The notes under the pieces: generated by a model | Told to the model about the DNA's origin: nothing | Databases searched by the model: none | The model's input: the letters and a program-made list of their open reading frames with translations, nothing else | Made by a program: the position numbers and the translations under genes | Shown here: piece after piece, positions 3,178-57,223 of the stretch | Layout of the letters: the number at the start of each line of letters is the position of its first letter | Position numbering within the stretch: position 1 is the first letter of the stretch | Source of the DNA: Octopus vulgaris | Taxonomy: Eukaryota | Assembly: GCA_951406725.2 (NCBI GenBank) | Contig: OX597817.1 | Coordinates: forward strand, 66,402,001-66,466,000 | Direction of reading: 5' to 3' | DNA: 64,000 nt

Positions 3178-6100
3178 TATTTATGTAAAGAATATTAGTT
3201 GTTATCTACATATTAGGTTAGGATATGAAAAAAGAAATTCAGAAATAAATAAGAGTATGGCTTAATGATAGTTTGACCACATGTTTCACTTCTACTACCC
3301 AGTTAATAGTTCCTTCTCCACATTTCAGAGGAAGTTAAAAATAAGTACTATTAAGATATAGATATCAGTAAGTTTAAAAGATATTAACCATCAGTGTGAC
3401 ATCATGAAGTAGGAGAATAACATAGAATACATCAGAACAAGTGGTATATCCATGGTTATCCAAACTGAGGTGTAAATGGTGAGTTAATTTCAATTATGGA
3501 AGAAATACTTGAGTAAATAAAAGTGAATAATCTCCAACATACATGATTGTAATGGAATATAATTCATGCAATGAAATATAGACTCTATATTCTAGCTTGG
3601 AACCTGATCCACTAAATTACATTTTACAGTTTAAAACAATCTTCTCTCAAAAAACAATAGAAGTCCTTCATTTGTTCAATGCATTCAACCAAATCCTCCT
3701 CAATAAACTCCTTGACACCATTAGAAATATTAGTGATCACTTCTTTTAAATTCTGAAATCTAAAACATCATGGCTATAATGTAGATATATGGACTAGTTT
3801 GTTCAAATAGCTATTTCAATGTCATTGATCTGATGAAATGGCAACAAGACTATGTTCTAAAACTATTAATCCCATCTGAGTGAATCTATTACAACATTTA
3901 TATCAATATGTTTCAACAGATTTGATCTTTGATCATAATCAGACGTCTCATTACAACATAAAGTAGAGGGTCTGATCCCAGATAGGATGGAATCTAGGAA
4001 CCTTTATTTTAAAATCTAGTATAATAATGGCCTTATCTACTATGCACATACATCATTGATTTAATTCATAAAGACATTACTATCTGTATTTATGCTATTC
4101 AAAAAAGCCATTACTATCTGATGGCAACTCAAATCAACTGAAACTTAGTATAGATACTTTAAATATATGATCTAAAAATGAGGTTAACAAAGACTATATA
4201 ATCTCAATTAAGTTGCTGCTTAAGCAAGGCTGATGGGATCACACAACAATTACCATGACAATGTCCTAACTGACTATACAAATAGATGTTTGATTGAATT
4301 CAGTTCATGTAAAGTTTTTGTTTAGCTCTTTTTAAGTTGCTTTGGTTTTTTATTTAGTTCCAGAAAACTAGCATAATGCAATATTTTGTAAAAGAAAAAC
4401 ACAAAAAATAAACCATCAGCCATAACTGAATTCTGTGAGTGCTACCAATTATATTACTTACATGCCTGAATATAGCATAGGTAAATCTATAAATCAATTG
4501 CTATGAATTACTAATCAATTACTACAGCTAAAATCAGTTACTTTTTATTTGTGGTATTTTATACTGGTTTTTAACAAAGGTATAAGGCTATCACAAAGGA
4601 GAGAGGATGGGCTAAAGTAATATAAATTGACCTTAGTATTTGATTAATGTTTTATTTTCTAATTTGAACTCAGAAATTAAAATGTAAAGAGACATAAACT
4701 ATATACAACAAAGCATTTTATCTAACACTCTATGCACCACACAACCAATAATAATAATTACAACAACAATGTTTTCTAATATGGATAGAAGGCCATACAT
4801 TTTGGGAGAAGACTAAGTACAGTTAATTAGATTACATCAGTACTTGACTGATATTTGTTTTATTGATTGTTGAAGTATGAAGGGCAAAATTGATCTTGTA
4901 GGGATAACACATTTTAAAATGATGTAATATTGAGTCACAAAGTTACCTCAGTTTGATGTTCATCAGCAGCCAAAAAATCAATGGTTCACATCTTGTCATT
5001 TGTAATGTAGTGTTTCTATAGAAAACAGTTGCCATTCAACTTACAATGTTAACATTTAAATCCCTTAACTGCCCTGAGCAAGATATTAAACAACAACTAG
5101 TGGTGAGGATCCAGCTCAGGAGTTTTGGAGAGTGTAGAGTTGCCATTTAGTCACCACTTCTCTGTGTGATAGTACTTACCAAGAAACTTAGTTATGGGTC
5201 AAATAGCAGATGGCCTTGTGGATAAAGTATACAAGACTTTGAGGAGGGCTGGCCCCTAGACATGTGTCACATAGACCCACAGGTGTGTGGACAAGCCCTG
5301 ATGTCACATGTACCAGCCCCCACCCTGCCTGTAGGGGAACTAGCAGAGTAAACTGGCAAAAAAAAAAAGGTAATGGGAAATTGCTGAAGTATCTAGAACA
5401 AGAAAATTCACGAATCCTCAGGCTTTGTCATGTAGGTTCATGATCGCCACTGCTTGTAAGTATGGCACATGAAGAGAATGAGAAGTTTAAATTTGCATCT
5501 CAAGTAGATATATGTATTATTTTAAGCCACAGCAGCCCTATATAATTGATAAGTGAAAAGGGAAAAGAAACATACATACTTGCACTCACAAACATGCACA
5601 TATACAAAACAACTTTCTATGTACTCCAGGGAAAGTGTATAAAATAGAATGTTGGAGTATCATGAAGAAAAGAAATTCAATAGTTTCAGTAATGCTGATC
5701 ACAAAAAATATGTATAATAGTTGATATTTGGAAGAACATGTCACTGTCAAGTTGAAAATCTCAAGTAAACTTTGATGTATGAAAGCATTTCTAAACCGGA
5801 GATGAAACTAGAGTTAAATGTATTGCCCAGGAGTACATAACTCAAAGGTTTAAGTAGGACACAAAACAAACAAAGAACCAGGATTTCCCAAAGTTTATCC
5901 ACTCTGGATAAAGTACAATAGAACCTTCACTTCACTCAATGTTACCTACTGTATGGTTCTATAACAGTGAATATCTTGAAATATACACCCAAACAGATAC
6001 ATTTAACATGAGAGGTCTAGTAACTAGAATGATGGAAATATTCTTCAGGCTGATATGATTGTTCCCTACATATTGATGAATAACAGTAAGAAGAAAGGAG

Positions 6101-13081: not shown

Positions 13082-13367
13082 AAAAAATACAAAATGGGAC
13101 AAGAACGCAAAACATCCAAAAAGACGATACAAAAAACACGGACGGGTCATTCGAAGCCTTTAATCTTCAGTCAAGAACCGGATCATCCTCGCAATTTCAG
13201 CTGATTAATCTTGAGATTGCTCCAGTCTGGCCAACCCCAAGGAAAATCTAAGCTTAGAGCATTAGATTCTTTGAAAAAAGGATCGAGTGTATACGAAACA
13301 AGGAAGGAAAATGGACGATGTTACACGAATATAAATACAAAAATAATACAGAAAAACAATAATAATA
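13080..13367 (-). mobile_element. Insertion within (TA)n microsatellite, probably a retroelement terminal-repeat remnant
   Basis: About 285-bp CpG-retaining unique sequence flanked on both sides by TA/CA repeats. Contains the structured RNA motif at 13157-13242. Confidence 0.6.
13157..13242 (-). ncRNA. Candidate non-circularly permuted hammerhead-like ribozyme (copy 1)
   Basis: Minus strand CCUUGG|GGUUGG|CCAG|ACUGGA|GCAAU-C|UCAAGA|UUAA|UCAGCU|GAAA-UUGC|GAGGAUGA|UCCGGU|UCUUGA|CUGAAGA|UUAAAGG. Five helices pair, and all hammerhead core nucleotides sit in register with stems I and III. Confidence 0.6.
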
Positions 13368-20579: not shown

Positions 20580-20614
20580 GTTTCTGACGAAGAGCTCCGC
20601 TCGAAACGTTAAAC
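20580..20614 (+). ncRNA. Minimal type I hammerhead ribozyme motif in a (TA)n-embedded insertion (20532-20705)
   Basis: GUUU-CUGACGA-A-GAGC UCC GCUC-GAAA-C-GUU-AAAC. Stem I GUUU/AAAC, stem II GAGC/GCUC, extra A after A9, palindromic ACGU stem III. Confidence 0.7.
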
Positions 20615-34514: not shown

Positions 34515-34736
34515 CTGGAGTAAGCACATAAATGTAAAACAAGGTGGAAAAAGAGTACTCAAATACCAGAGGTAGAGTAATATGCTTTATTTAAAAGCAG
34601 CAGAAATATAACAAAAGCTGTTACTCAGTGTTTCACGTTCCCGTTCGTCGGACAGTTTTGTTAAAATTGTAACAAAACTGTCTGATGAACGGGAACGTGA
34701 AACTCTGAGTAACAGCTTTTGTTATATTTAAATAAA

Positions 34737-40978: not shown

Positions 40979-42944
40979 GTGCCTATATTATTTTTTTAAT
41001 GGTCTAGTGAGAAGAGAAAGGACAAATACTATAATTGTTTTTAGAGTGACCATGACTGGTAGAAGTAAGAGAAAGGTTATTCTCAGACAAGAGGCCAGAT
41101 TCAAATACTTGCAATATAGCTGATTCACTAAAGGTACCCAAGGTAGTGGTATAACACATGCTGACAGCTTAAGCCTATCTCCCATGAATATGAAGGTCCT
41201 TCCAATGGGTTTCCACACAGTTTCCTTCATTCACTTTCCCTTCACAAAGCTCTGGCTAACCAGAGGCTAGGATAGAAAATACCTTTCCAAGGTGGCATGC
41301 AGTGGAATAGAATCTAAAACCATGTAGTTGTAAGCAAACCTCTTAAACACATCTATTCAGCTTATGTAGAAATGATACAACTGTTACTACAATATTGCAA
41401 TAAATGTGGCTACCTAACAAATTCATTGTATGTAACTAAGTAGTTCAGCAAAAAAGACTGATAGAATAAGAATTAGGCTTAAAAAAAGTCTTGGGGTCAA
41501 TTTGTTTGACTAAAGTCATTCAAGGTGGTGTCTCAGTATGGCCTCAGTCAAGTGACTAAAACAAGTAAAAGATAAAAGATAAGTATAGCTAAGTTACAAA
41601 GTCTATCACTAGTTTTGGTTTATTGGTACTGAATAGATGACTAGTAGTCAATGAAACGACAATGTGACTATGGCCACTTTCCACATTTCTGGTGTGGAAA
41701 CTGGCAGAAAATATTGCTAAGCAATCCAAGTTCTAGGAGCACATCATATCAATGACGTGCTGCCTGGTCATCTTCTCAGATTCCACCAATCATGTAAAAA
41801 CTGACTATGTCCTAGGAAGAATACAGAAGAAACTCATGAGAAAAAGCTTGCAGAAGCTTGTAGAGCAGTGCAGAAGCCAAGTAGGTTGCCAGTGTTTTGT
41901 GGGGAAGTCATTCTGCAAAACTCTAAGTACATTTGAAGTGCTGCAATGAGGTGGTTGGGGGTATACATTCCATTGCAGAAATTACAGAAAAAGTTACTAG
42001 ATAGCTTTGGATAAAGTGAGCAGAGTTATGACTTATTACTGTTAGGATTCAAGTTGGGACTAGATCAATCCTGGTTAGGTCAACTGGGTGAGAGGGACTG
42101 ATGTTAGAAGACACTACAAGCCCAAGAACATCCTAGTTGATACATCCTAGAGCATCAGTAAAATATATCTTGGAATTTATTGTGTATAACGAATAGAACA
42201 GTGAAGAAAATTAGTGTATCACTAGTTTTGATTTATTAGGCATTTAACAGGTAAGTGATAGGATAGTTAGCAGGTCATTGTACTGTTACACAACTGGAAA
42301 CAATTTTCTCGTAGATAAGAACACAAGTTTATCACAGATGCAGGTAACTTTTCATATAGTAGTAATTACACTCAGCACCGCAAGCTAATGCATTACTTAC
42401 CATTACCATAATATTGCTGCTGCTGCTATTACATATAGCAGTGAATTATGCTACCTGTGGTACCCACTTAGAGGTAGAATCAGCTGTTGAGAGTTAAGTA
42501 TGTTGATCAAAGATAACAGTGATAGTAACATAAATCACTGACCTCTGTAGGTTACACGGTAACCAACCGGTTCAACTCTCAATATCTCAAACTATCTAAA
42601 TAGCTGATATTTTTTTTTAAGAAAGTATTTTTACACTGATCACCCTCTACTTGGTAACATAGGCTTTAGGTTTTATTTTGCAAATTTTCAAGTTTTATAA
42701 ATTGCTAAAGCAAGTGTTTCAGATCTGTATTTTTATCCCAATGCTAACAATTTAATTGATATAAAGTACTAGGAGTTTTGGAGTCAATTGGTTGCTGCAG
42801 GATGCCAAGCATTTTGGTTTAGGTTCAAACTTAAGTCATTTGAGTAATTTTATTGCCATGATCATTCTACATCTATTGAGATCATTCTGTTCTAAAATTC
42901 AAAGCTGAAACATATTATTGTAAAAATATGAGGATGTGTGATAT

Positions 42945-43544
42945 TAGTTCTGCTCTTCAGCTATCTATTTAAGGCTGTATATGGCTATGGTGCAGTCACA
43001 CTTGGAATTTGCATCACCAGTCTGGAACCCCTATTTTGTTCAGGACATTGACCTCCTGGAAACTGTTCAGAGACATGCAACCAAGTGAATACCCTCCATC
43101 AGGCATGTACCATACTCTGAATGCCTTCCTTCCCTGGCCATAGATACATTGACATTCCAACATCTGGCAAATGACTTGGTAAACACCCACATAATTATTA
43201 ATCATCATGCCAACAACCACCTTCAACACCTACAAAGTCAAAAAACAGAACAGCACCCATGACTTTTGGAAACATTTTTTCACACTCAGAGTTTCTGAAG
43301 CATGGAACAAGCTACCTGCATCAGTTGTTAGTTGCTGAGACATTGTATCCTTTAAAACCTCCATGCTTCCTGAAATTCACCAACACTACACCTGATATCC
43401 CCTGCTCCGTACACATGTGCATCATGACTTATACAATGTTCACTTTCCTGACTTTTGTACATAATTCTATGTACTATACATGCACTTTTGATGGGTTGTA
43501 GTGCACCTGAGCACTATACACAATAATTTCATTATTATGTTATT
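42945..43544 (+). mobile_element. Old degenerate CR1 LINE 3' fragment
   Basis: Colinear with 46340-46900 of the neighbouring CR1, including the 3' end GTTGTAGTGCACCTGAGCACT.TACACAAT plus (ATT)n. Frameshifted. Confidence 0.85.
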
Positions 43545-45310: not shown

Positions 45311-46905
45311 AGCTGACACCTGCAATGCTGCGACGTCACCTTCAAAATAAGCGCAACTATGCCTCCCCTGGTCTCGATGGAGTTACATACCTGCTTCTCA
45401 AACGTGGCAGGCACTTCCTTTTACACCAGCTTTCTATTTTCTTCCAGTACTGTCTCAACAATGGTGCTACTCCGGAGCAGTGGAAAACTGCCAGTGTCAT
45501 TCCTCTGTTCAAAAAGGGCGACCGCACATCACCTGTCAACTATCGCCCAGTCAGTCTCACTAGCTGTATTGCAAAACTGATGGAATCGTGTGTCAGAGAA
45601 ACACTCTGGAACTTCTGGAGCTCTCACAGTCTCATCCGACCCTCACAATATGGATTTGTCCCTAACTCCAGCTGCAGTGACCAGCTTGTCGAGTTCCTTG
45701 AGGACATTACTCAGATTACTGACAGTGGCTCATGGGTGGATGTTGTCTACCTTGACTTTGCTAAGGCTTTCAACTCTGTGCCACACAAAAGGCTTATGGT
45801 GAAACTCTCTGCAATGGGTGTGGGGGATGACCTTTTTAACTGGTTGAAATCCTTCATCCTCAGCCGAAAGGAGGTAGTCACAGTTCTAGGACAGCACTCT
45901 ACACCATATGAGATGTCATCGGGTGTACCACAGGGATCTGTCCTTGGTCCCCTCTTGTTTGTGGCATACATTAACGACATAGATGCCAATTTAAAGAATG
46001 CCACAGTATTGAAATATGCAGACGACATCAAGCTGTACCTTGAAATCAAGAGGACAGATCCTGATGTCTACAACTCTTTCCTGCAATCAGACCTAGACAC
46101 AATGCAGCAATGGATCACAGACTGGCAACTGAAACTGGCTGTGGACAAGTGTACCACCATGCATTTTGGGAGAAAAAACCCTGCGTTCACATACTCCCTC
46201 CACAACACTGATATCAAGAAATCCTCTTGCGAGCGTGACCTAGGCATCACTGTCAGCAGTGATTTGCGTTGGTCAAAGCATATCTCTAAGATTGTCAGGA
46301 AGGCCGAGGGTGTCTTGGCATCACTCAGCAGGTCTTTTGTTAGCCGCTCTCCAGCCATCTATTTAAAACTGTATACAGCTATGGTACGACCACACTTGGA
46401 ATTCGCATCATCAGTTTGGAACCCCTATCTTGCACAGAACATTGACCTCCTGGAATCTGTCCAGAGACGTGCAACCAAACGCATACCCTCCATCAGACAC
46501 CTACCATATTCTGAGTGCCTTGTTTCCCTGGGCATGGATTCACTGAAGCTCCGGCGTTTGGCGACGGACTTGGTAAACACCCACAAAGTTATCAACCACC
46601 TCACCAACAACAACACTGAACACCTTTTTGATCTCCATGTGTCTAACACACGTGGACATGCCTACAAAGTCAGAAAACAATACAGCTCCCATGACTTTCG
46701 GAAACATTTTTTCACGCTCAGAGTTGCTGAAGCATGGAATAAACTGCCTGCGTCAGTTGTTGACTGCCATGACACTGCATCTTTTAAGGCCCTCATGCTT
46801 TCCGAAATCCGCCGAAACTACACCTGATTATATATACACTTTAGATGAGTTGTAGTGCACCTGAGCACTGTACACAATTATTATTATTATTATTATTTTA
46901 TTATT
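45311..46905 (+). mobile_element. 5'-truncated CR1-clade LINE with open RT frame (ORF 45325-46827, 500 aa) and (ATT)n tail
   Basis: RT motifs NYRPVSLTS, QYGF, VYLDFAKAFNSV, SGVPQGSVLGPLLF and YADD, plus CR1-type C-terminus (VRPHLEFASSVWNP, VQRRATK, FFTLRVAEAWNKLP). No endonuclease domain or ORF1. Confidence 0.95.
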
Positions 46906-53831: not shown

Positions 53832-54324
53832 GTTGGAATTTAGCCCTGATCAAGTAGACCTATGATCAAAGACATATCAATTGTGATCATCATATTCTAG
53901 TATATCTGTGATTTATTCATTGGTTAGCTCAAAGCTATGGTAGAAGACACTTGCCCAGGATACTGAGAGTGAAATTGAATCCAGAACAACAAAACTGAAA
54001 AGAGAACATATTAATTACATAACCACATTTACACCACTGATAACACAATCTCATCTTGTTCCAGTTATTATAAGATCTTCATGACTGACTGTCCAGTGGG
54101 CTACCATGACCAATTGCCATGACAGATGCATCTAGCAACAATTTACAACAACTAGTTTTTGACTGCCATTATAGGAATACAGTTGTACAACAAAAAGGAA
54201 TCCTTGTAAGTATGTATTCTGCACTGTTCTTGGCTGACATATTTCTCAAGACTTTTGAACATGTTTATATTTTGAACTTATTAAATTAGACAAGATTAAT
54301 GCAAGATATTTACTCTCCAAGAAA

Positions 54325-54908
54325 ACCATCGTCTTTTGTCAGAGCTGGGAAACAGCTAACCCCAGCCAGAAAAACATTGGTGGGCATCCTAACATCTGCA
54401 AGAGACAGGCAGCTATTGGTGGATCTTGAGCATCAGCTGAAGTTCCCTGGCCACATTGTGGTCACCACCCTGCGACCAGACACTGTCCTCGTGTCTGAGT
54501 CCACCAAGCAAGTGGTGCTGCTGGAGCTGACTGTCCCATGGGAAGATCACCTGGAAGAAGCTTTTGAGAGAAAGCTCTTCAAGTACACGGGTTTGGTTGG
54601 AGAGCACGGAATCTCCCACTGGAGGTTGGATGCAGGGGTTTCTCAGCCTGTTCCCTTCAAGAGTTTGGACATCGAGGGAGTGAGAAGGAGGAAGGCCATC
54701 CGCAGTACCACTGATGCAGCAGAGAGAGCCTCACGATGGCTGTGGATCAAAAGAGGAGAGCTATGGGGTAGCTAGTTGGTCATCTGGACACAAGCTGGGG
54801 TCTGATCAGCCCCAGCTGGGTCACCTGGAGGAGGGTGTATGATGTTGAAAGACCCGAAAGACCCAATGATGCCAGGCACATCACTGAAGATATGTCCAGA
54901 TGCATCAG
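54325..54908 (+). mobile_element. 3' fragment of an RLE-type (HERO-like) non-LTR retrotransposon
   Basis: Restriction-like endonuclease motifs TTLRPDTVLVS, VVLLELTVPWED, EEAFERKLFKY, (shifted frame) LPLEVGCRGF and AAERASRWLWIKR, followed by a GC-rich structured 3' UTR. Confidence 0.8.
54781..54902 (+). ncRNA. Candidate non-circularly permuted hammerhead-like ribozyme (copy 2) in the HERO-like 3' UTR
   Basis: CAUCUGGACACA|9-bp hairpin|GGGUC|A|CCUGG|AGGA|GGGUGU-A|UGAUGU|UGAAA|GACCC|GAAA-GACCC|AAUGAUG|CCAGG|C|ACAUCA|CUGAAGA|UAUGUCCAGAUG. Same helix order as 13157-13242. Confidence 0.6.
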
Positions 54909-57223
54909 TCATTCATGTATGCATACAACACTTTATATTGTGTATACCATAAAAGGCACTCCTCCTACATTTATTGAGCAATTAAATTGTAAACCTACCA
55001 TGCTAACAATTCATAATAAAAATATATGAATTTATAGACCTATTCAACATATACTGGTTAAGGAAAAATGATATCCTTAGTTTGAATATACTACCTCTAA
55101 GTAACAGCATTTATGTTAGTGGAAAACAATGATTTTAGAACAAAGAGAAAATTGTTTGTAGAATGCAATCTTCATGCACAATGGCACCAGGCCAACTATT
55201 GACATTAGAAATAAATATTTCTGTCTAAGGTTGGCATACTGACATATTGAATAAGCACTTCATAATTGAAATTCAGTTCCCAAATGAATAGATTTGTTTT
55301 ATTTCAAATTTTATTGTTATGTTCAGATTTGTATTATTTTTTAGTTAAAAGTCCTGATTTTGGCTTCAATTCAGCCATGTTTGACTTAGTTATGAAATAC
55401 TAAAATGATATCTATATTATTAATACTTTAAGCATTTATTTATTTATGTTTCCACTTTAGTTCAAATAGTAGATAAATAAAGCTTTATTTTAATTTTCTA
55501 TTTTAGTAACCATCATCAGAGATAAAAAAAAATTGCTAAGAAGTTCTGTGTGAGATAATTTTGAAAATGGTGCTAGTATAATAAAGTACATTAAGTGACT
55601 ACGCTTGAAGTAGTCCTGCTGAGAATAGATTCTCATTGAAAAAGAAAAACAACCCTGAGACTGTATTAATGCTTGTAAAGGGTTTATCTAACCTACTGAT
55701 GGAATGAGTCAAGTTTTATATTGGTATTGTAATAACTGTCACATTTTCAACACAGGTTCAAAATACAACAGCCACCTCTGTCATGATATCATTCAATATA
55801 TAATACTTAAATACCTAGCTCATCTCAGCTTAATCTATCAAGCTAATGAGGAAGCCGCTACATGATTACTCAAGCTGCTAGAAATAACGACCAAAAGCCC
55901 CTCAAATCACACACTACCATCTTAGAAAAAGATAGATACTTTGGATAAAGTAGTTCTAAAGTTTAAAAAGATGACTCATTGGTCGTGAATTGAACATTTT
56001 GGAATATAGGAATGACCTGGAGCTAAACAACAACACAGTCTATTTCCCAGGTTCAGATCACACATTAAGAGAATCAAGGTTAATTAGGCATTTTGTGAAT
56101 CAGTGATAATCTGTTACATCACTACCTTATGGCTAACTGCTAAAACATCATGTTTATGATAAATGTTTTACATAGACAACTTTGTTTAGTCTATTTACAA
56201 CAAAAGAATGAAATATTATTTATTCACTGCATGGTTATGTCAAATAATATTAAAAATAATTCAATGACTTCCATTTAAAAGTAAAGTTCTTTGGTAAAGT
56301 CCTATACCTGTTACAAAGTATTTACTTTGTGAACAAACAGCATTGTTGTTTACAATTTTCCAAATGCCATGAAAAGGAAGTATCTATGAAACTTAAGTAG
56401 AACACATATTTTCATTTCAAAGCATCAGTTTAGTGGTTTTCTGCACAACAAAATTCCACACAGAAGGTAAGCTCCAACACAGTGAGTTTGAACCCAAAAC
56501 AGCATGTTAACTACACAGCCATGCATGCATCAATAGTTGAGAAGTTATTCATTTTTTTCATAACCTAAATAATTTATATATCATGGGACCCACATCAAAG
56601 AGCCATCAATAATTTGTCTTAGAGAATGTTTTTACAGATAATTATTCTAGCTACTTAAATAGTTTCGAATGACCTTTAATCAATTCTTGATATCAATCTG
56701 TTTAAAATAACCTTTTATAAAAGAGAGAATAATATGAAAGGTACAGTCAGACATAATTGAAAAAGGTGACAGCAACATTATTATCAGTCACAATATTAAG
56801 AAAATCAATGAGCTAATTTTTTTTTTCATAAATACTTATATTTGTAAATGTCAAAAATCAAAATGATGGGAAGCAAGGCAACTGGTAAAAATTGATGATG
56901 AGAGTTTGATTTATGATGTTTTAGATGTTCCCTTATTAAACTACATTTCTGAAACACTGAAATGTTATATCTGAACAGCAGTTGTCTCTGATCACAGGAT
57001 ATTTCAAAGATTTAAATAACAGTAATTTAAGATCAATTACTCTAATTATTAATTTGAAATATTTCACTGGAATATAAGATTACACTTCAGATTTATAGAA
57101 CAGAGACAAAGGAGAAACAGAACAGAATTTTAACGGACAACTCTTGACTGATTGTAAAGGATTAACATATCCAAAATTTCACTGGTTTAATCCACAACTC
57201 ATTCAAGTTAATTTATAGAATGA

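Follow-up and report, generated by a model that had tools for sequence, protein, structure and literature searches.

A conserved, pseudoknotted hammerhead-like fold with an interrupted block C in the 3′ untranslated regions of HERO-like retrotransposons

Introduction

Published hammerhead ribozymes have been ordered into a scheme of six permutations which takes block C as uninterruptible (Eckert et al. 2023, PMC10085705). The non-circularly permuted members have so far been backed only by metatranscriptomes and metagenomes, and that study found none of the type-SGC RNAs (HRIMA-1 and variants) in the genomes of known organisms. These RNAs present their blocks in the order S-G-C with the hammerhead core, a short linker between stems I and II, and an additional helix beside the free sides of those two stems. 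Their stem II strand directly follows CUGANGA, so that block C is whole with the termini outside it, and their cleavage has been demonstrated (PMC10085705). A different variant, the PK hammerhead (PDB 8YDC; Zhan et al. 2024, PMC11300833), has an extra helix and a pseudoknot around stem II; there, the sheared A9.G12 pair and G10.1-C11.1 make up the short stem of a single pseudoknot-making loop, with a pistol-like connectivity.

Self-cleaving RNAs have also been described in retroelements. Penelope-like elements, which are of the GIY-YIG kind, and metazoan retrozymes, which are short non-autonomous repeats, carry type I hammerheads and occur in complete or partial tandems. The cutting of tandem transcripts into units was proposed for the former and shown for the latter, circular intermediates were proposed, and palindromic loops and dimers were described (PMC6765202, PMC7229834, bioRxiv 2021.04.23.441226). 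R2 is an RLE-type non-LTR element whose self-cleaving RNA allows it to leave a co-transcript. Its ribozyme is of the HDV-like class and sits at the 5′ end, while the structured 3′ UTR is described as an RT-binding element (PMC7650587, PMC13580325, PMC12222951).

Here, we analyze an RNA motif encoded in a 64,000-nucleotide stretch of DNA (hereafter, the window). Judged from its sequence, this HERO motif is hammerhead-like on each testable feature, yet it lacks the contiguity of block C that defines the published types. Further features that are new here are a covarying palindrome in a hairpin loop, a separate 3′-terminal hairpin, and head-to-tail arrays of the element. Our search of the open literature, which included PMC3088659, PMC13725137, PMC10162972, PMC6155905, PMC4640811 and PMC2684134, turned up neither a description of a ribozyme in HERO/Zebulon nor a hammerhead interrupted at A9|G10.1, and no tested precedent for two helices inserted at that point; Repbase, Dfam, Bouneau 2003 and Weinberg et al. 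2015 (cited for hammerheads with additional helices), which lay outside its scope, could lower the novelty.

The element copy in the window and its family

The motif belongs to an RLE non-LTR retrotransposon of the HERO/Zebulon-like kind, present at positions 54312–54929 as a decayed, 5′-truncated copy (all features lie on the + strand unless indicated otherwise). This 3′ portion of ~620 bp has 81% DNA identity to a related locus, L001, and contains internal deletions; run contigs of the HERO-like family that were matched to the window stop at 54927–54930. The copy is a dead, 5′-truncated insertion. No convincing target-site duplication was found.

Most of the copy (54312–54775) is the remnant of a C-terminal restriction-like endonuclease that has suffered deletions, still bears an LRPD..ELTVPWE motif, and ends at a TAG stop (54773–54775). 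A sequence-only reading of this DNA had placed the RNA fold directly after the stop of the RLE ORF, and this stop is indeed the family's own. The frame ending at 54775 had no match in Pfam. It did match 155 longer proteins at their C-terminal ends. Among the 120 matches listed, many have an RT domain, and those with a named source were mostly from fish, with some from amphioxus. PF00078 lies upstream of the matched C-terminus in these relatives, which thus have a single ORF with RT and a C-terminal restriction-like endonuclease, and the RPD..E..K motif is invariant in their alignment (A1). Despite the damaged frame, the closest named proteins, from marine fish, are 60–70% identical to the translation of 54312–54775. 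In a host other than a fish, such similarity would point to horizontal transfer, a claim that we do not make.

The HERO label rests on similarity to two Tetraodon polyproteins (AAN12398.1 and BAC82599.1, which fall into one 90% cluster) and on the names Zebulon and HEROTn, which we presume to be theirs. These two are 52–54% identical to the window element over the RLE end. Their C-terminal residues read into the first helix of the motif, as they do in other relatives; indeed, the ORF extends into the RNA motif in many of them. Zebulon and HEROTn reportedly occur in partial tandem arrays (Bouneau et al. 2003; Kojima & Fujiwara 2004). When viral contigs were scanned at the protein level, no relative turned up. 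Fragments of RLE retrotransposons were seen in tiny contigs within bacterial genome records (L081–L083), and are likely eukaryotic contamination of those records.

The fold of the window copy

The sequence-only reading had described a permuted, pseudoknotted hammerhead-like fold in this 3′ UTR, and the positions that it gave for every helix and motif agree with the sequence. The closing helix, P0 (54781–54792 with 54891–54902), forms 11 of 12 base pairs, with a mismatch of C54791 and A54892; its 3′ strand follows directly on A9, where the strand of a canonical stem II would be. At the position of A54892, G makes up 97–98% of the family's depth in three genomic-type runs (X17–X19). Between P0 and stem II lies a hairpin (54793–54817; 88% paired), in whose loop a palindrome occupies 54803–54808. 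It had been called a 9-bp hairpin. The minimum-free-energy structure does contain eight Watson-Crick pairs and one GU pair, but the comparative data favor 8 bp and a loop of 2+6+1.

Stem II pairs 54818–54822 with 54851–54855, G54818 being G10.1, upstream of and detached from A9. The pseudoknot helix PK follows (CCUGG/CCAGG, 54824–54828 with 54872–54876). The 3′ strand of stem III and the GUH triplet occupy 54833–54839, with the GUA site at 54837–54839 and the predicted cut 3′ of A54839 (position 17). Stem III pairs 54833–54838 with 54859–54864 and has one mismatch, G54837 with G54860. Stem I (54840–54845 with 54878–54883) abuts CUGAAGA at 54884–54890 (C3 to A9), the two together spanning 54878–54890 on the 3′ side. 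Block G (54851–54864) is made of the stem II 3′ strand, GAAA (G12 to A15.1, 54856–54859), and the stem III 5′ strand. A further, 3′-terminal hairpin (GCA..loop..UGU, 54902–54918), decayed in the window copy, was absent from the sequence-only reading.

That reading had also treated G54860 as a lesion of this copy. In accord with this, C accounts for 78–91% of the depth at this position in runs X17–X19, in which the flanks are also covered, the depth fractions being taken at 80% likeness, which mixes subfamilies. C15.2 is present in 46 of 47 aligned family members, and the window copy, with G54860, is the sole exception. The window copy is a decayed relic in which the 15.2–16.2 pair is broken. 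When its 122 nt were folded alone, P0 and the hairpin formed and the pseudoknots did not (z = -2.63; 2 of 200 shuffles). Folding of this single sequence is only suggestive of the motif.

Conservation and covariation across related loci

Relatives were gathered by a protein-based scan that was blind to the RNA. The best 80 of 200 were kept and three further loci were taken from genome contigs; 81 loci (L001–L080 and L083) were examined, of which 65 had at least 150 nt after the ORF. A covariance model located the motif downstream of the ORF in 58 of these 65 (E ≤ 0.005), and 15 of the 22 loci outside its training set carried the motif there. It missed L046, L063, L065, L067, L078, L079 and L083, although L078 passes a strict descriptor. 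That descriptor was passed by 30 of the 65 HERO loci and by none of their reverse strands. Nor did any of 120 viral loci pass it, although these had been chosen for containing GAAAC..CUGAWGA in a pattern scan of ~4/64 parts of a viral contig collection, and the covariance model, run on 100 of these 120, gave two weak, poorly paired matches. In distant relatives (29–40% protein identity), the motif or a variant of it stands 150–380 nt after the end of the ORF (L047:2373–2496, L078:1770–1880, L083:1000–1250); CCCTAA-like repeats occur near it in L078, and (GTA)n repeats occur in L083.

For counting, 47 rows were aligned with MAFFT, blind to structure, with a mean identity of 56%; they had been picked by an nhmmer profile seeded on parsed copies, which introduces a mild bias towards the motif. 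Omitted were near-duplicates (L022, L062, L066), copies with internal deletions or cut off by a contig end (L002, L009, L025, L028, L030, L037, L043, L060), and a divergent group (L023, L024, L031/L056, L035, L040, L041, L047, L078, L080). In this alignment, 88.1% of 1998 cells were paired, compared with 61.9% when shuffled and 34–43% when slid. Two-sided, compensatory changes occurred in 37 of the 44 model pairs. When all 7140 column pairs were ranked by MI-APC, a calculation in which the model was not used, 22 of the top 23 were model pairs.

Two-sided events that kept the pair were counted on a tree of 46 rows for which coding DNA alone was used. P0 had 50 such events over 10 pairs (1–3 in slid controls), and two-sided changes affected all 12 of its pairs. 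PK had 23 over six pairs (1–6 slid), stem I 20 over five pairs (0–3 slid), stem III 20 (0–3 slid), stem II 13 (0–3 slid), and the hairpin 14 over five pairs, slid controls overall giving 0–6. Stem I was 94.5% paired, with two-sided changes in 6 of 6 pairs. All six helices covary. The covariation and the slid, shuffled and descriptor controls rule out chance folding. The UGAUG..CUGA sequence might also be read as that of a box C/D snoRNA, and SNORD78 did give a match, at 16.6 bits against a cut-off of 38; however, the RUGAUGA of box C is not conserved, and the C-box-like bases are those of stem I, which vary freely with compensation. We therefore assign chance folding or snoRNA-like sequence a negligible probability, and it is virtually certain that the clade-wide RNA structure is real. 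The earlier reading had staked itself on the conservation of the core nucleotides and pseudoknotted helices among HERO 3′ UTRs; the comparison was carried out and found them conserved, with the permuted fold in 58 of 65 loci and covariation in every helix.

The hammerhead core

The hammerhead core is nearly invariant. C3, G5, A9, A13 and A14 are invariant in the 47 rows; U4, A6, A15.1 and C15.2 each occur in 46, G8, G10.1, G16.2 and U16.1 each in 45, and G12 in 40. The G10.1:C11.1 pair is kept in 43 rows (39 GC and 4 GU), A15.1:U16.1 in 45, and C15.2:G16.2 in 44. At N7, all four bases were seen, and position 17 is A in 11 rows, C in 22, U in 13 and G in 1, that is, non-G in 46 of 47. A free N7, a non-G at 17 and an otherwise fixed core are the pattern of an active hammerhead core. 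Because N7 is free, 17 avoids G, and G10.1 is kept, the conservation fits catalysis and goes beyond shape, and we think it probable that the HERO-like family is catalytically active. The core is fully intact in only 34 of the 47 rows, as expected of dead copies and equally of relaxed selection. Rfam models gave no matches at the gathering threshold in the window or in seven intact loci, and no hammerhead even at E values up to 10.

Topology compared with published hammerheads

From 5′ to 3′, the motif comprises P0, the palindromic hairpin, the stem II 5′ strand, the PK 5′ strand, block S, block G, the PK 3′ strand, the stem I 3′ strand with CUGANGA, and P0. It thus shares with type-SGC RNAs the S-G-C order, the short linker between stems I and II, the core, and an extra helix beside stems I/II. 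The two part at block C. In types I–III and in the six-block scheme, A9 is joined to G10.1 with at most 1–2 inserted nucleotides, and a viroid hammerhead tolerates one extra base at A9|G10.1. In the HERO motif, the nucleotide that follows A9 covaries as part of P0 and can pair with C11.1 in just 2 of 47 rows; the strand that covaries as stem II, G10.1 included, is found ~70 nt upstream, past the hairpin. Because A9 runs into P0 and the G10.1 strand lies upstream, the two ends of the chain fall inside block C, and the motif is not one of the six published permutations, its block C being split at A9|G10.1. Where A9 and G10.1 meet, a four-way junction of the core, P0, the hairpin and stem II is probable, in which A9.G12 would stack on G10.1-C11.1 and P0 on the hairpin.

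Two further points separate the HERO motif from the type-SGC RNAs: its cleavage is predicted from sequence, whereas theirs was demonstrated, and it sits in an animal retrotransposon clade (PMC10085705). With 8YDC it has in common the extra helix and pseudoknot around stem II and, if the stacking proposed above is correct, the A9.G12 sheared pair on G10.1-C11.1. In contrast, the PK hammerhead has neither the S-G-C order nor a closing helix between A9 and G10.1, going by the text excerpted (PMC11300833). Membership of the HERO motif in that group was considered and rejected, its helix II not being replaced by a pseudoknot to the loop of a helix IV; since A9.G12 and G10.1-C11.1 stay in one stem in the PK hammerhead, the latter is a different variant.

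The palindromic loop and the terminal hairpin

The hairpin between P0 and stem II had been viewed as an insertion tolerated at a junction where another motif in the window, termed copy 1, has two abutting helices. This view was not confirmed, as the hairpin is present in 47 of 47 aligned rows; the sequences indicate that it is a fixed part of the motif with a covarying palindrome. L078 was considered as an example without the insert and set aside, because its parse with P0 abutting stem II has an alternative with a hairpin.

The loop of the hairpin contains a Watson-Crick hexamer palindrome of one of four types in 37 of 47 rows. Its two central, adjacent columns covary (MI-APC rank 19 of 7140), and its three pairs have six two-sided events against 0–1 in slid controls. 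Adjacent covarying bases cannot pair in cis, so pairing between two RNAs is indicated, and the palindrome is a candidate kissing-dimer element on these comparative grounds. A divergent clade (L023, L024, L030, L031/L056, L040, L041) has a GAYG tetraloop in place of the palindrome, which counts against a general role for it.

The terminal hairpin, 3′ of P0, forms five or more base pairs in 33 of the 55 copies of the motif, compared with 62 of 2750 shuffles. Its inner pairs vary (TC/GA, GT/AC, GC/GC, CC/GG), and in the window it ends ~11 nt before the end of the element. The sequence-only reading had offered the hammerhead-like fold itself as a possible RT-recognition structure; this hairpin is the more plausible candidate for the signal at which RT recognizes the RNA and starts.

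HERO units in tandem arrays

HERO units occur in head-to-tail arrays. Of the 57 motif copies that are followed by 250 nt or more, 17 run into a conserved 5′ UTR 30–85 nt later, 13 of these 17 having helped to seed the profile; the N-terminus of the next ORF begins downstream of the motif in 11 loci. A less biased test is the count upstream of the fetched ORFs: sequence of the 3′ end precedes the 5′ UTR start in 7 of 7 loci (L003, L014, L031, L054, L058, L068, L070), three of these being contig starts inside the motif that may be collapsed arrays. L001 is truncated within its 5′ UTR. The “3′ ribozyme” is thus also positioned just 5′ of the next unit, which makes the contrast with the 5′ ribozyme of R2 smaller than the earlier reading supposed.

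Several observations accompany the arrays. The conserved 5′ UTR has about four short subrepeats with small hairpins (L003, L014, L017, L039, L044, L052, L054, L058 and others) and is a candidate internal promoter or RNA structure. L054 contains a tandem of two subfamilies (760–882 and 4484–4604) that have the same loop palindrome; the partners are 72% identical, which shows that some arrays arise by successive insertion or template switching. L046 and L079 are tandem junctions without a recognizable motif, the former with a long U-rich UTR and the latter with an apparent deletion relative to L080. Among the loose ends listed, no pile-up of element ends at the predicted cut site was found. Three contig termini are nonetheless recorded here, all of which may be assembly effects: L037 ends exactly at the GUC site of the predicted cut (1279), L014 starts 1 nt after its predicted cut (position 1), and L031 has a 55-nt terminal overlap (1–55/3837–3891) that tandem DNA or a circle would give equally.

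What the ribozyme might do

We lean towards a reading in which a HERO-like ribozyme cuts tandem transcripts to unit length, the template being rejoined or else protected and left uncut. Read-through transcripts of an array would be cut after GUH by the intact copies, yielding permuted unit-length RNAs whose cut ends would be held together by the four helices that span the cut (P0, II, PK and III). The template for reverse transcription would then be re-ligated, or a terminal copy shielded from cutting, and RT would start at the separate terminal hairpin. One or the other is needed because genomic copies are continuous across the site and for ~90 nt beyond; were the terminal copy cut, the last 90 nt that insertions carry would be lost, so that the reading calls for a further step of either ligation or blocking. 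Other points against this reading are the absence of a pile-up of ends at the site among the loose ends listed, the loci in which the covariance model detects no motif, tandem L046 among them, and the joining of different subfamilies in some tandems, such as L054. The upstream copy in L068 starts at P0, immediately behind an AT-rich flank and ~65 nt 5′ of the cut, and this start favors rejoining; the upstream starts in L070 and L014 fit plain 5′ trimming.

Cutting and rejoining might go further and make circles. The cut tandem transcripts, with their ends still paired, would be re-ligated into a circular RNA intermediate by which this RLE clade moves; circles could pair through the DIS-like palindromic loop, and RT from the terminal hairpin could run past a full turn or switch to the partner RNA, leaving the partial, mixed tandem arrays of HERO/Zebulon. 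We offer this elaboration tentatively, as a possibility of the lesser kind. Precedent for parts of it comes from the Penelope-like elements and retrozymes described above, with which HERO shares a retroelement ribozyme, partial tandems and a palindromic loop; HERO differs from them as a non-LTR clade that encodes an RLE and whose motif has six helices in a pseudoknotted arrangement.

A role solely as a 5′-end trimmer, as in R2 and the Penelope pLTRs, seems to us rather unlikely. Here, the cut in an upstream array copy would set the 5′ end of the RNA and may aid translation, the terminal copy would be held uncut by the RT protein, and the template would stay linear. The finding of 3′-end sequence before all seven upstream 5′ UTR starts speaks for it, as do the L070 upstream piece, which begins downstream of the cut, the L014 contig, which begins 1 nt after it, and the HDV-like ribozymes of R2, which free the RNA from a co-transcript. 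Yet an RNA that starts at the cut cannot template the upstream copy of L068 (a single case), and the same sequence would need to be active at one end yet inactive at the other. Lower still do we rate a catalytically silent, hammerhead-derived scaffold that RT binds for target-primed reverse transcription. The location in the 3′ UTR and the continuity of genomic copies across the site would suit such a scaffold, and R2Tg is described as binding a 3′ UTR pseudoknot to begin TPRT. On the other hand, all 13 core bases are kept, with N7 free and position 17 varying among A, C and U to the avoidance of G, which is the signature of catalysis, and the separate conserved terminal hairpin could itself serve RT binding.

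The palindromic loop raises the prospect that the ribozyme is active only as a dimer, by way of a kissing complex that couples cutting to RNA pairing. The four Watson-Crick palindromes in 37 of 47 loops, with covarying adjacent bases that are unable to pair within one molecule, agree with this; so does the palindrome shared by both partners of the heterologous tandem in L054. Dimer-dependent hammerheads with palindromic loops are described for Penelope-like elements. Nevertheless, the divergent clade has its GAYG tetraloop, L078 is without the palindrome, all of the stems are long enough for a monomer, and the palindrome may have its function in packaging or in the pairing of templates instead of in catalysis. 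We consider strict dimer dependence very improbable.

Of the features weighed here, several recall R2, which is likewise an RLE-type non-LTR element with a structured 3′ UTR and an RNA that cleaves itself; its ribozyme, however, belongs to another class and lies at the other end of the element (PMC7650587, PMC13580325, PMC12222951). If the predicted cutting is true, the HERO motif extends the hammerheads by a wiring which, under the published permutation scheme, was taken to be impossible, and places a non-circularly permuted hammerhead in a widespread clade of animal retrotransposons, with dozens of natural covariants. The motif gives a testable handle on the partial tandem arrays of HERO/Zebulon. 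It also bears on the way in which RNA ends are set in an RLE element that is not R2, which matters for current efforts to employ RLE elements in gene insertion. As Rfam models miss it, ribozymes with comparable rewiring may be going unnoticed in other repeats.

Other motifs and repeats in the window

A second, older and degraded HERO 3′ end was located by tblastn at 41677–42157, with a decayed copy of the motif at 42036–42152 (covariance model, 27 bits, E 7e-6). On the - strand, positions 13152–13290 have the same topology in an unrelated sequence, within an ORF-less repeat of ~310 bp between (TA)n runs; the cut is predicted 3′ of C13215. This is the only site in the window that passes the strict descriptor, and it scores 21.5 bits (E 3.5e-4) with the covariance model, outside whose training set it lies. 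It is probably the copy 1 of the sequence-only reading. The abutting helices ascribed to copy 1 were not confirmed there: a constrained fold gives a hairpin of ~28 nt within the 35-nt segment that separates P0 from stem II, and the abutting register needs a bulge. This single sequence, of which no homologues were obtained, may mean that another repeat family uses the rewired hammerhead wiring.

The ORF at 45313–46827 was also considered as copy 1 and rejected, as it encodes an unrelated RT; it is an open frame of 504 aa (PF00078, + strand) from an unrelated non-LTR family, of which a fragment, a second, decayed copy, lies nearby at 42954–43392. Finally, minimal hammerhead-like motifs of classical order (CUGANGA, a short stem II, and GAAAC) stand near (TA)n at 20584–20605 and 34682–34702, both on the + strand. 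We take them to be Penelope-like; in the one at 20584–20605, an additional A is inserted after A9, ahead of stem II.
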